Of a DNA stretch of 64,000 bases, positions 59,246 through 64,000 are shown piece after piece. Every line of letters begins with the position of its first letter. Within the stretch, counting starts at the first letter, position 1. The notes beneath the pieces were generated by a model. That model saw only the letters and a list, made by a program, of their open reading frames with translations. It had not been told where the DNA came from and made no database searches. A program made the translations under genes and the position numbers. Source of the DNA: Patescibacteria group bacterium (GTDB lineage: Bacteria; Patescibacteriota; Minisyncoccia; Phycocordibacterales; Phycocordibacteraceae); the NCBI GenBank assembly GCA_018970425.1, contig JAGWWK010000002.1, forward strand, positions 72,068 to 136,067, read 5' to 3'.

Positions 59246-60451
59246 TTACGCAACAATCTTAGTAACGACGCCTGCGCCGACAGTCTTACCACCCTCGCGG
59301 ATAGCGAAGCGCATCTGCTCTTCCATCGCGACCGGTGCTACAAGTTTTACCTTGAATGTCACTGTGTCGCCCGGCATAACCATCTCGACACCATCTGCAA
59401 GAGTCACCTCGCCAGTTACGTCCGTTGTGCGGACATAGAACTGCGGCTTGTAACCCGAGAAGAATGGCGTGTGACGGCCTCCTTCCTCCTTAGAGAGGAT
59501 GTACACCTCTGCCTCGAAGTCGGTATGCGGAGTAACGCTGCCCGGCTTTGCAATCACTTGGCCACGGGTCACGTCTTCTTTCTTGGTGCCGCGTAGAAGG
59601 ATGCCTGCGTTGTCGCCGGCCATACCCTCCTGAAGTGACTTGTTGAACATTTCAATACCCGTGACAGTTGTCTTTGCCGTTGCCGCGAGGCCGACAATCT
59701 CAACTTCGTCGCCAACCTTGAGCGTACCGCGCTCAATACGACCGGTTACCACGGTGCCGCGGCCTTCAATCGAGAAGATGTCCTCGATAGGCATAAGGAA
59801 CGGCTTTGATGTATCGCGCTCAGGCTGTGGGATGTACTCATCAAGCGCCTTTGCAAGCTCCATGATCTTTTCAGTCCACTCGTCGGTCTTACCGGCAAGC
59901 GCTGACTCGAGCGCCTTGAGGCCTGAACCGCGGATGACCGGCGTATTCTTACCGTCAAAGCCCTGCTTCGTGAGAAGCTCGCGGATTTCCTCTTCGACGA
60001 GGTCGACGAGGTCGTTGTCTTGAACCATGTCTACCTTGTTGAGGAAGACAATGATGCGGGGCACGCCGACTTGGCGTGCGAGGAGGACGTGCTCGCGTGT
60101 TTGAGGCATTGCACCGTCAGTTGCGGCAACTACGAGTACCGCACCGTCCATTTGGGCGGCACCAGTAATCATGTTCTTGATGTAGTCAGCGTGACCAGGC
60201 GCGTCGATGTGCGCGTAGTGGCGCGTTGGTGTCTCGTACTCTGAGTGGGAAAGCGAGATGGTAATACCACGCGCCTTCTCTTCAGGCGCCTTGTCGATGT
60301 CATCAACACCCTTCACGGTCGCGGCGTAGCCGTTACCCGCTTTGTTGAGAACATTCAAGATAGCCGCAGTGAGCGTGGTCTTGCCGTGGTCAACGTGGCC
60401 AATGGTGCCTACGTTTACGTGCGGCTTCGTGCGGTCAAAGTTTCCTGCCAT
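59246..60451 (-). CDS. tuf: elongation factor Tu
   Basis: [15 protein letters not shown]-type, NKVD motifs. ATG at 60451 gives the canonical [12 protein letters not shown]-terminus. Confidence 0.9.
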
Positions 60452-60693
60452 AACTCTTTTAGTCTGATTATTAAGAATTAATTCAAACAACTGCTCCGTT
60501 TTGGTATGGAAGCCCGGAACCCGCTCCCTCCTGCCTGGTGTCCGCAGACAGAAAACACGCGTATAGCGTTACCGTGTATACTACGCGACTACAATGAAAA
60601 GGTCAAGAAATCTACTTCGGGGAGAGGGGCGCGAATATAGCGCTAGAATCTTAGCTATATCTTAGACTTCTCAAGTGACCATCAGGTGTGTGT

Positions 60694-61986
60694 TTACTGG
60701 TCATCGCAACGCCAGCCGGTTTGGCAGCCGTTTTGATCTTTAATCATGATGAGCGTGCCAGTGCAGAGAATAGGCGCAAACCCTATCGCAGGACACTTTG
60801 GCGCATCTATTTTAAGAAGCGGCGGTGCACTCGGACACTGCCACGACACGATGCACCCGTTTGCGTCTCTCACCGCGGTAGCCGCATCGCATGCAGGAAG
60901 TACTTGCGGCACATTTGCACACGCATCTTTCGGTTTCGTCACATTGTTCTGTCCAAGAGCGTCACAGCGCCATCCTGTTTGGCACCCGGCCGAGTCGCGT
61001 ACAATACTCAGCTGCCCATTGCAGGGACCGGGGATGTATTCAATGAGCGGACAGAGTGATGCCCCCTTCCCTGTACCTGGCTCAGTACACTGCCAGCCAG
61101 TTTGACAGCCATTTTGATCTCGCAGTGAGGTGAGCGTGCCACCACAGAGTGCTGGGGTAAACGCGACACTTGGACAGGAAACGCTCGCGCCAGTTGTTTT
61201 AGGTGCGGTGGAGGTTGGAATGCACTGCCAACCGCTCTGGCATCCGGCAGTGGTATAAGAAGGCACCCACGAACCCGAGCACGGCGTACCTGGCATAGTC
61301 CACTGAGTGGCAGGACAGACCGACGCAGCCGGTCGCGCATAACTGCCGGCACTACCCGCTCCTCCGGTCGTTGAGCTCGTTACTACGGTTATCTGCACGC
61401 TACAGGCGACCTGCGTACTTCGCCCATAAAATGTAAGTGTTTTACGAGTCGTCGTTGCAATGTCTGAAAACGAGCGCGTACCGGTCGCTGCCTCTCTCTC
61501 GCCAGAATCCCAGACGGCGTACGCGGCGTTCTCGCTCGTCCACGTAATTTTGACCTCTTGATTTTGCAAAATGCGGGACGGTGTCGCCGCCACTCTACAG
61601 GTGAGCGCAGACATACCGCTCCCCGGGGCAGTCCGCGGCTCTACTGCTCGCGTACCACCAGGGCACGCCGCAAGCATGACTGCGCGAGTCCGCGGACCAA
61701 AAACGCCAACCTGGGGCAACTTCTCCTCTTGTTGAAGTCGGACTATATACGAGCGCGTTAAAGGGCCAAAATACCCGGTAACGAGCGTGGAAGTTGCAAC
61801 GCCGTACCGCGTAGCAAGGAAAGATTGGAGTAGTGCTACATCGGCACTTCTCGAGCCAACAGCGAGACCTGGCGCAGGGACACGGCACTCAGTCAGTGCA
61901 ACCGGCACAGTCTCTGCGTATGCAGTAAGAGGACTTGACGCAAGCGTGACAAGAAAGAGCATTGCACTAGCAAGGAGCTGCTTCAT
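60694..61986 (-). CDS. secreted protein with N-terminal peptidoglycan-binding-like domain and five tandem 4-Cys repeats
   Basis: Signal peptide MKQLLASAMLFLVTLASSPLTAYA. PG_binding_1-like ADVALLQSFLATRYGV...GYFGPLTRSYIVRLQ. Then five repeats of the form CPxxxFxPxxCxGTLxxxxDxNGCQTGWQC. Confidence 0.55.
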   Translation of the reverse strand: MKQLLASAMLFLVTLASSPLTAYAETVPVALTECRVPAPGLAVGSRSADVALLQSFLATRYGVATSTLVTGYFGPLTRSYIVRLQQEEKLPQVGVFGPRTRAVMLAACPGGTRAVEPRTAPGSGMSALTCRVAATPSRILQNQEVKITWTSENAAYAVWDSGEREAATGTRSFSDIATTTRKTLTFYGRSTQVACSVQITVVTSSTTGGAGSAGSYARPAASVCPATQWTMPGTPCSGSWVPSYTTAGCQSGWQCIPTSTAPKTTGASVSCPSVAFTPALCGGTLTSLRDQNGCQTGWQCTEPGTGKGASLCPLIEYIPGPCNGQLSIVRDSAGCQTGWRCDALGQNNVTKPKDACANVPQVLPACDAATAVRDANGCIVSWQCPSAPPLLKIDAPKCPAIGFAPILCTGTLIMIKDQNGCQTGWRCDDQ

Positions 61987-62194
61987 AACCTGAGTATACC
62001 GCAACGACCCGCGCCTTTCGGTGCGGGTCGTATACGAACAGTGCATTTCTATTCCTACTTTCGCGCGGCCTTAATAGCCTCAGCAACGTTTGTCGGTACC
62101 ACTTCGTAGTGATCGAACTCCATAGTCCATGACGCACGACCCTCGGTCATAGAGCGAAGCTGCGTCGTAAGCGTGCCTCCCAAAGAGTCAAGCG

Positions 62195-64000
62195 TTACTG
62201 CTGAAATGGAGAATTCTCGCTACCGGGAACGAAGATTCTTTCGGTTACAGGCTTTTCTTGACACATAAGTCCGGTCAAACATCCATTCGCATCATACTTA
62301 GGCAGTGTCGTGCCAGTACATAAGACTGGTGTGTAGATCACCAGCGGACATGCAACTGGTTGCGGTACGGTAGGTGTCTGGACAGTCACCGTCACGGTTT
62401 TCTCTGCATACTGAGACCCATCTTTCGAGCTATTCGTACACCAGAGTCTGTACGCAGTCGTCACAGAAGGTGCGACGGTAAATGATCCGCTGCCGATCCA
62501 GAGCGAACTTGGCGTAATCGATGGGCCACTAGACCCAGTACCAGCGAAGATATAGCATCCGCCATTAGTCGTGCCTGTACTACTCCACGAGAGTACCGTC
62601 GACTGCCCGGGAGTAATCGACGTAGGCGAGGCACTGAACGCAGTAATAGTTGGTGCGACTACAGGAGGAACTGGCGGCTGAAGTGTGCTTGGTAACAAAG
62701 TGAACTGAATTGCATTTGACTGAGCGTAAACGGCGCCGGCAGTATTAGTGTGCCCGCATCCAAGTGAACTGCACTGCCGTAGCTGTGCGGTGAGCTCATA
62801 GAGGCCAGTATAATCAAGACCAGTAGGTCCAGTATTCCAATTGCGCGACCCGGTCCCTGATCCAGGGGTAGATACGATGTTTTCCCATGATCCACTGCTC
62901 ACCATGCCGGAAGGAGGATTTGACGGTTGAATGTTCTTTACCGTCAGCACAACTTGTGAGTTCTGTGGAGCGTTTGCATACGACCAAGAGATAGGGATAG
63001 GATTCCCTACAGTAATCACACTGCCTGATTGAGGACCGGAAAGCGTAACTGTCGTCGCTGCTGCAGCCGGAGGCATCACACTACTTGTGCGCGTATATGT
63101 AAGCCCTGTACCTGGCAGCCCAGGAACTCCATACCCATTAGTCCAGTCGTTCGTTGCAAATGTAGACGTTGTAGTCGAGTTAGGTGACCAGATAAAGTAT
63201 CCAGTATCAGTTTGCATCGCGAAGCTACCTGTGCCACTTGGCGATGTATCCCCACGTACAGTGGTGCTTACGCTACCTGACCCAGACACTTGCCCACGAA
63301 GTTCAAAGTATCGTGTAGCACCTGCGGGAATCTGTACTGGCTTAAGGAATATGTTTCCGAGTGCTCCGTACGTCGGTATTGACCCATCGCTTGCAGTGCC
63401 TGAGTTAGGAATGGAGTAATTACTGTCACTATACGCATGCAATTTAACATTCGTAACACTTACACCACTGATTCCAAGCGTGGCGTAGTAGCGCCCTAGA
63501 CTCACAGGCCCGCGCGAGTCGGCACTCACTTTAAAACGAAAGAGCCTGCCGTCGAGAAGTCCTGTGGGAGATAGAAGTGCATTGTCAGACGAAACAATAG
63601 GGAACGACTTCATAATGCGCACTCCTGCTGGGAAACCTGGCACACCAGCTGCTATTACTGTTGTTCCTGTCAGGCTCTGCCCTGTCGTGTCGCTAAAGCC
63701 TGTATCTACTCCTACCTGCACAAGGTGACCAGACACTGACACCGGCTCAGCAATACCAATCAGCGCAATGTCTCCCTTAATGGTAAGCACCAGACTCGTC
63801 CCTGCCTGAATGAATACGGACTGAGTGAGCGTGATCACGGTTCCGTAACTGTTTCCTAGGAATGACCCTTCGCCGACTTTCGTCGTCCCATTCCACAACG
63901 TTACTTTCTCTAGATCTGCCGGCACCGCCTGTGGTGTCGGGCCAGAGGCGAGGGCGAGTCGTACCTTCTGGAGCGTTACTGACTGACCGGTCGCCGTAAA
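62195..64000 (-). CDS. large Ser/Thr/Gly-rich surface protein (5' partial, frame open to window edge) ending in the same 4-Cys module
   Basis: The frame stays open upstream of the listed GTG at 63925 to position 64000. Low-complexity S/T/G-rich beta-rich sequence. C-terminal [30 protein letters not shown] matches the repeat of the downstream gene. Confidence 0.5.

Follow-up and report, generated by a model that had tools for sequence, protein, structure and literature searches.

Two Adjacent Patescibacteria Genes Encode Putative Wall-Anchored Surface Proteins That Share an Uncatalogued Four-Cysteine Module

Two Neighboring Genes Encode Exported Proteins with a Common Module

We analyzed a 64,000-nucleotide stretch of a Patescibacteria group bacterium genome (assembly GCA_018970425.1, contig JAGWWK010000002.1, positions 72,068 to 136,067 of the forward strand; hereafter the window), at the far end of which two adjacent reverse-strand genes encode proteins, here called protein 1 and protein 2, that carry copies of the same small four-cysteine module. 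The open reading frame of protein 1 occupies 60694..61986 (-) and encodes 430 residues beginning MKQLL, identical to NCBI entry MBU6310682.1 ('peptidoglycan-binding protein', Patescibacteria group bacterium). From its N-terminus, protein 1 comprises a signal peptide, a PG_binding_1 domain, an immunoglobulin (Ig)-like sandwich and, in its C-terminal half, five four-cysteine modules. The signal peptide (residues 1-24, MKQLLASAMLFLVTLASSPLTAYA; 61915..61986, (-)) ends in an AxA site with cleavage before Glu; it was judged by eye and from an AlphaFold2 helix at residues 2-16, with no dedicated predictor, and homologues of protein 1 share the same type of N-terminus. A second possible start, the ATG at 62046, would give a 450-residue protein by placing 20 residues (MHCSYTTRTERRGSLRYTQV; 61987..62046, (-)) in front of the signal peptide. 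The 450-residue form is the one called in short-read assemblies, and the 430-residue form the one at NCBI; the latter, with the signal peptide at its N-terminus, is more likely.

PG_binding_1 (PF01471; residues 47-104; 61675..61848, (-)) lies between Cys34 and Cys108 and scores 31.5 bits against a Pfam cutoff of 23 (E = 2e-7), with scores of 35-46 bits in the homologues P0004, P0006, P0007, P0008 and P0009. AlphaFold2 models the surrounding region (residues 33-108) as helical, with helices at 48-61, 75-87 and 98-107 and predicted local distance difference test (pLDDT) values above 90, which reproduces the three-helix bundle of the family; the best fold match in Foldseek is the SleB N-terminal domain (6tci, TMt 0.82). 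The signal peptide and peptidoglycan-binding-like domain that an initial annotation of the window had assigned to protein 1 are thus both supported, the former as a signal-peptide-like N-terminus recognized by eye and the latter by a score above the family cutoff. The Ig/PKD-like beta-sandwich that follows (residues ~125-203; 61378..61614, (-)) lies between Cys130 and Cys195 and is modeled by AlphaFold2 as eight strands spanning residues 131-202 (pLDDT >90); Foldseek matches it to PKD domain 1l0q and to Ig domains with a probability of 1.0, and a Pfam sequence scan gave no match to it.

The five modules of protein 1, all on the reverse strand, are module 1 (CPATQWTMPGTPCSGSWVPSYTTAGCQSGWQC; 61222..61317), module 2 (61087..61176), module 3 (60964..61053), module 4 (CANVPQVLPACDAATAVRDANGCIVSWQC; 60835..60921) and the C-terminal module 5 (60706..60795). 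Each is 29-32 residues long with the spacing C-x(9-11)-C-x(11-12)-C-x5-C, and module 1 belongs to a Trp-rich subtype with x11/x12 spacing. Five copies with regular cysteine spacing are as initially annotated; the proposed GCQTGW(Q/R)C core is exact in only three of the five, the others reading GCQSGWQC and GCIVSWQC, and the repeats described as ~30 residues recur with a period of 41-47 residues once linkers are counted.

Protein 2 (62195..64000, (-)) is a large beta-rich surface protein whose 5' end lies beyond the window edge; 601 codons are visible, the open reading frame continuing to the edge with no stop. As had been proposed, this truncated gene ends in one copy of the module (62261..62350, (-)), located by the spacing pattern and by BLASTP, which aligns it to the protein 1 modules at 45% identity (E = 2e-7). 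This match, together with cysteine spacing that is conserved in six copies, bears out the claim that two adjacent secreted proteins share the module. The alignment of protein 2 begins at residue 227 of its 994-residue homologue P0008, which consists of a signal peptide, PG_binding_1, a module, a long Ig-like array and a terminal module. Because the homologue has this layout, the unseen N-terminus of protein 2 is likely to include PG_binding_1 and another module as well.

The four cysteines and the Gly preceding Cys3 are invariant in all six window copies, each of which fits the pattern C-P-x(5-11)-C-x(10-16)-[DN]-x-x-G-C-x-x-G-[YWF]-x-C in an exported protein. A six-frame search of the window revealed no further copy. 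In 20,000 shuffled versions of protein 1 the spacing pattern never matched more than once, compared with five matches observed, and a chance origin of the repeats, including the low-complexity coincidence that had been raised as a refuting case, is therefore excluded. Against the five modules of protein 1, its orthologues P0004 and P0009 carry three each. The additional copies are modules 2 and 3, both missing in P0004; these are old duplicates whose nucleotide identity to the nearest copies is only 52-67%.

The Module Defines a Rare Family Absent from Domain Libraries

As the initial annotation had suggested, a profile was built from the six window copies; it was searched against 1.84 billion representative proteins at a threshold of E<=1e-3. 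The search returned 77 proteins, of which about 37 carry full-length modules; protein 1 scored E = 1.2e-81, and the remaining carriers ranged from 6e-25 to 1e-4. Upon local re-scoring, near-full-length modules were present in 38 sequences, counting protein 1's own cluster and window protein 2, and ~120 distinct modules were extracted from the carriers. The very large top matches (such as P0002, P0003 and P0012) were rejected as spurious; only a stretch of 12 residues aligned, within profile positions ~17-31. Iterative expansion with a hidden Markov model (HMM) drifted within the matches and was replaced by a spacing expression, so the invariance of Cys3-x5-Cys4 in the family is partly by construction. 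The resulting consensus is C-P-x-[IV]-x(2-3)-P-x(1-2)-C-x(2)-G-x(3)-P-x-Y-D-x-x-N-G-C-[LIVQ]-[TVI]-G-[YWF]-x-C. Across the ~120 modules, all four cysteines are invariant, and other recurrent residues are the Pro after Cys1 (79%), the Asp (73%), the Gly before Cys3 (85%) and a Tyr, Trp or Phe two residues before Cys4 (86%).

Neither Pfam-A nor NCBIfam matched the module in the two window proteins, nor did Pfam in 30 other carriers or NCBIfam in ten. When the 120 modules were isolated and scanned against Pfam at E<=10, no family was matched by more than four modules (best E among those, 0.12), and a literature search found no description of such a module. Carriers are annotated as 'hypothetical protein' or by the name of a co-resident domain. 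The profile search thus recovered a module family with no match to an established one, and the initial impression that the module is not a described domain holds for Pfam, NCBIfam and the PDB. Real and rare, the module constitutes a small domain family missing from these libraries, its general type, the cysteine-rich extracellular repeat on surface proteins, being familiar. Present in two distant phyla and currently invisible to annotation, it merits a new domain entry.

Among the N-termini read, every complete one opens with a signal peptide or lipobox. The carriers fall into two groups. The first consists of Patescibacteria/Paceibacterota proteins (P0030, for example, is labeled Candidatus Pacebacteria/Paceibacterota at NCBI). 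The second consists of lipoproteins with 3-12 modules and much additional cysteine-rich sequence, lacking PG_binding_1; P0016, P0036 and P0070 are labeled Deltaproteobacteria, Myxococcales and Labilithrix, and P0005 and P0015 have no taxon label. The Trp-rich x11/x12 subtype comprises module 1 and copies in P0004, P0009, P0014, P0030, P0033, P0034, P0042, P0043 and the locus L090. Close relatives of protein 1 were limited to P0004 and P0009 in searches of representative proteins. A word-indexed search with the whole of protein 1 returned itself, P0004 and unrelated PG_binding_1 proteins; the same search with the 209-residue repeat region and with the 120-module alignment gave no matches, the index requiring several shared 5-mers and being ill-suited to such queries. 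No relative of protein 1 was found among GTDB species representatives, a scan of JGI metagenomes found one module-bearing locus (L090, with one Trp-rich-subtype module in a large surface protein), and a scan of viral contigs gave a PG_binding_1 match only. The gene neighborhoods of the non-Patescibacteria carriers P0022 and P0005 were uninformative.

Two further features of the carriers were observed. P0030, P0033, P0042 and P0043 are large Paceibacterota-type surface proteins with one Trp-rich module each, acidic repeats of the CSDGIDNDGDG type and a common C-terminal ending, ...CKVAPTFEE[FI], which could be a sorting or anchoring signal particular to this lineage; L090 encodes a related large protein. 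A second type of small cysteine-rich domain, C-x-x-WFDGCNTC, forms the C-terminus of P0005 (residues 842-868) and P0017 (residues 291-318), carriers that are otherwise unrelated, and matches Pacifastin_I below threshold (E ~6e-4; 20 bits, where the cutoff is 27.9).

The family most reminiscent of the module by spacing is carbohydrate-binding module family 10 (CBM10; PF02013; Cellvibrio japonicus Xyn10A, 1E8R/1QLD), likewise a small, aromatic-rich, secreted bacterial module with four cysteines that occurs in modular extracellular proteins. Its spacing, C-x9-C-x14-C-x5-C (sequence confirmed against the PDB), is identical to the commonest spacing in our family (25 of ~120 modules), and one of the 120 modules matches Pfam CBM_10 at E = 0.0011. 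It is nonetheless very unlikely that the module is a divergent, cellulose-binding member of this family: an E value of 0.0011 is not significant after 120 tests, no window module matches CBM10, and hhalign gives a profile-sequence probability of 5.7%. Window copies are spaced x9-11 / x11-12 / x5, and spacing alone does not define CBM10; the modeled module also lacks the two small sheets and helix of the 1E8R fold.

Cysteine-rich modules of ~30-40 residues arranged in tandem on secreted proteins are also characteristic of Kazal, pacifastin, antistasin and Bowman-Birk inhibitors, raising the question of whether the modules form a wall-anchored array of small protease or wall-hydrolase inhibitors that shields the cell from host or competitor enzymes. 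Size, cysteine content and tandem layout resemble such arrays, the Pro-rich loop between Cys1 and Cys2 could mimic a canonical inhibitory loop, and some carriers contain domains with weak or true matches to inhibitor-type families (Antistasin and Somatomedin_B in P0019, weak Pacifastin_I matches in P0005 and P0017). These inhibitor-like matches fall outside the modules, however. Inhibitors of these families have three or more disulfides. The four-cysteine module has no Pfam match above threshold and no conserved reactive-site position; the loop between Cys1 and Cys2 varies widely and lacks a conserved P1-like residue. The best Antistasin E value on protein 1 is 0.98, no inhibitor family among the Antistasin, Pacifastin, Kazal and WAP HMMs was matched by more than one of the 120 modules at E<=10, and none of the 120 modules matched one significantly. 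We consider an inhibitor function distinctly unlikely.

In Several Carriers the Module Is the Only Cargo of a Peptidoglycan-Binding Domain

PG_binding_1 scores above the Pfam cutoff in 11 of the 32 carriers scanned, and in eight of these 11 (P0006, P0007, P0008, P0047, P0050, P0062, P0064 and P0065) the first module begins 14-46 residues after it, in agreement with the earlier proposal that the module is linked to wall binding. The suggestion that the module might always co-occur with peptidoglycan-binding or S-layer-type domains did not hold, since the Myxococcota and unassigned lipoproteins carry 3-12 modules and no PG_binding_1. In other anchored wall proteins, such as those containing the SleB N-terminal domain (6tci) or CtpB (4c2c), which protein 1 and, by homology, protein 2 resemble in having PG_binding_1 behind a signal peptide, the domain usually accompanies an enzyme (an amidase, peptidase or lytic transglycosylase). 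Here the cargo consists of Ig-like domains and four-cysteine modules only; the module-less PG_binding_1 proteins returned by the word-indexed search do carry such enzymes, with PF01510 or PF07486.

In several carriers nothing but modules follows the signal peptide and PG_binding_1, with a single copy in P0064, two each in P0047 and P0050, and four in P0007. This architecture speaks for the module being a payload, or a second element in contact with the wall, and against a mere spacer. Nothing lies beyond the modules in protein 1, P0004, P0007, P0047, P0050 or P0064. A common anchoring or ligand-binding function of proteins 1 and 2, as initially envisaged, is plausible.

A purely structural role must be weighed against this interpretation. 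In such a role each module would act as a rigid spacer or rivet, stapled by disulfides, and would extend or cross-link wall-associated proteins with no external ligand, for example where modules of protein 1 touch those of protein 2 or bridge wall layers. The positions conserved throughout the family all look structural, Pro/Thr-rich linkers and the beads-on-a-string model of protein 1 are compatible with it, type-2 proteins such as P0008 have a module at each end, and the module is present in both genes of the pair. Yet the modules are often at the distal end or are the sole part beyond the anchor (one in P0064, four in P0007, five in protein 1), and a spacer makes little sense where there is nothing beyond the modules to be spaced. 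A structural role is therefore, in our estimation, rather unlikely.

The Module Is Predicted to Form a Hairpin Pinned by Two Disulfides

To build a structural model of a single module, we ran AlphaFold2 on module 5 with the 120-sequence alignment. The resulting model (pLDDT 84.7) is a simple beta-hairpin with strands at residues 23-28 and 34-40, preceded by an N-terminal coil that carries Cys1 and Cys2. Cys3 and Cys4 are six residues apart, on or beside the second strand, and on the same face as the conserved aromatic residue. In this model a Cys3-Cys4 bond within one module is precluded. Because Cys3 and Cys4 cannot pair with each other and face the aromatic side, the Cys1-Cys2 loop is most likely held over the face of the second strand by two disulfides; both the formation and the pairing of these bonds we infer from the model. 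The term 'Cys-knot-like' in the initial annotation does not apply. A cystine knot has three disulfides (six cysteines), one of which threads a ring formed by the other two, and a module with exactly four cysteines, modeled as a hairpin with an N-terminal loop, can form at most two.

AlphaFold2 modeling of the whole of protein 1, for which the alignment was shallow (14 sequences), returned five hairpins with pLDDT values of 70-83, those of modules 1 to 4 at residues 238-257, 284-301, 325-342 and 370-383, separated by linkers with pLDDT below 50 (predicted template modeling score, 0.30). These values fit a beads-on-a-string arrangement of independent domains.

Protein 1 contains 24 cysteines: two around PG_binding_1, two around the sandwich and four in each of the five modules. 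Every domain of the protein accordingly has an even number, and cysteine totals are even throughout the Patescibacteria-type carriers, which is the signature of disulfide-bonded exported proteins and, by virtue of its consistency, implies that the lineage has an oxidative folding system. The cysteine pairs that flank PG_binding_1 and the Ig-like domain are each conserved among protein 1, P0004 and P0006-P0009.

Four invariant cysteines per module might alternatively hold Zn or Fe instead of forming disulfides, and disulfides would be harder to keep in the anoxic habitats in which many Patescibacteria live. The spacing is unlike that of CxxC-type knuckles, however, and the proteins are exported; moreover, the even cysteine totals and the cysteine pairs around non-module domains bear the mark of oxidative folding. 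A metal site is accordingly highly improbable.

Multivalent Binding Is a Tentative Function for the Modules

Together, these results point to proteins 1 and 2 being exported, peptidoglycan-anchored surface proteins that both display an uncatalogued mini-domain of ~30 residues. Each module would consist of a hairpin, whose second strand bears Cys3 and Cys4, and a Pro-rich N-terminal loop that bears Cys1 and Cys2 and would be pinned onto that strand by the two disulfides; a small core would come from the aromatic residue that stands, almost without exception, two positions ahead of Cys4. Modules would fold independently, strung on Pro/Thr/Gly-rich linkers. A module of this kind could serve as a rigid, protease-resistant binding unit that PG_binding_1 holds out on the cell's own wall or on that of a host, for multivalent use. 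The likeliest ligand would be a repetitive polymer of the envelope (a glycan or cell-wall component), either the cell's own or that of a host cell to which an episymbiont attaches. We assign a probability of about 0.85 to the structural part of this interpretation, a wall-anchored protein with autonomous disulfide-stapled hairpin modules, and of about 0.4 to its functional part, namely that the modules act as multivalent binding units; binding and ligand alike we infer, and both are tentative.

Two features favor a binding function. The extra Trp and Tyr residues of the Patescibacteria x11/x12 subtype would lie on the free face of the hairpin, as in small carbohydrate-binding modules, and may hint at a glycan ligand. 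In addition, a module number that varies between orthologues would be typical of avidity-tuned repeats. By functional analogy, LysM, SH3b, choline-binding and SLH repeats are also short, autonomous tandem modules of exported proteins whose copy number varies between orthologues; they differ in having no disulfides and no relation to the module in sequence or fold.

Several observations weigh against the interpretation. Among modules of known function, none is homologous to this one. Every position that is conserved family-wide (four cysteines, Pro, the Asp/Asn-Gly of the turn and the core aromatic) looks structural, and no binding site common to the family could be identified. Type-2 proteins place one module beside the anchor and the other at their C-terminal extremity, an arrangement that would also suit contacts between proteins or cross-linking of the wall. 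Both the pairing of the cysteines and the exposure of side chains were deduced from the secondary-structure register alone. A scan of the window for thioredoxin/DsbA-type motifs found none in a coding frame, and no Dsb or VKOR-like gene was seen there, a result that is silent on the rest of the genome. Finally, searches of the PDB by sequence and by fold left the module unmatched, the fold search with a 42-residue model being insensitive and hence weak evidence for the absence of a known fold.

Most Patescibacteria are uncultured, many of them living on the surface of other cells, and the bulk of their surface proteins lack annotation. The recurrent pairing of PG_binding_1 with the module as its sole payload offers a small, tractable candidate for expression and ligand screening. 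These findings do not overturn current understanding; their value, of moderate interest, lies in the annotation gap that they expose and in a handle on Patescibacteria surface biology.

A fusA Remnant Separates the Two Genes Upstream of tuf

Between the genes of proteins 2 and 1 lies a remnant of the 3' end of fusA (elongation factor EF-G), identified by tblastn, that comprises 37 codons and a stop (62055..62168, (-)) and is 97% identical at the amino acid level to the fusA end of the relative L086. No full fusA is present within the window. The open reading frame list places tuf (EF-Tu; 59246..60490, (-)) directly downstream of protein 1, followed by rpsJ, rplC and rplD, and the tuf-side flank is also found in L083, L084 and L086. 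In L084 the gene order is fusA, P0008 (type 2), tuf; in L086 it is fusA, P0009 (type 1), tuf; and in L083 it is P0004 (type 1), tuf, rpsJ, rplC. Because the gene between fusA and tuf is either type 1 or type 2 in relatives, the window appears to combine two alternative fusA-X-tuf cassettes in tandem, a fusA scar marking their junction. One short-read contig, assembled from a public run (L001), ends inside this scar, a break that is consistent with, although not proof of, a second copy of the scar sequence elsewhere in the genome.

We compared the interval between fusA and tuf among related and unrelated genomes. In most non-Patescibacteria genomes fetched it measures 27-205 bp, the exception being L027, where ~1 kb contains an unrelated open reading frame, and in the Patescibacteria relatives L003-L010 that have both genes it measures 0.5-3.3 kb (for example, L006 6156..8030, L009 5098..7733 and L004 7261..8181). 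Cargo in L003-L010 is unrelated and includes pyrimidine synthesis genes (DHO_dh, Pribosyltran and OMPdecase) and an EamA transporter; that of L006 is a surface protein with PG_binding_1 and a Kre9_KNH Ig-like domain, without the four-cysteine module. The gap behaves as an insertion hot spot within the str operon.

The fusA remnant and the alternative cargo hint at an exchange of surface-protein cassettes at a housekeeping locus. A more far-reaching proposal would combine both lines of this study: episymbiotic Patescibacteria would use undescribed, disulfide-stapled glycan- or host-envelope-binding mini-domains together with PG_binding_1 to attach to cell walls, and the fusA-tuf gap would be a swap site for recombination via the conserved flanking genes, two alleles having fused here to leave the fusA scar. 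We regard this combined proposal as unlikely and speculative as it stands. If the gap is a swap site, variable surface proteins would adjoin one of the cell's most strongly expressed genes.

A terminator-like GC hairpin followed by a T-run (AAAAAGCCCTGAGAGGGGCTTTTTTG) lies 3' of fusA in L084 (~370-420) and in L086 (~925-975). The fusA remnant in the window has no such element, and read-through from protein 2 into protein 1 is therefore possible. A promoter and terminator scan of 60300..62400 detected no convincing terminator and, as the only promoter-like signal, a weak site upstream of tuf. The window's ribosomal protein L3 shares 70% identity with its counterpart in one uncultured metagenome-assembled genome, and the next matches, at 57-59%, are labeled Patescibacteria group, Paceibacterota or uncultured bacterium.

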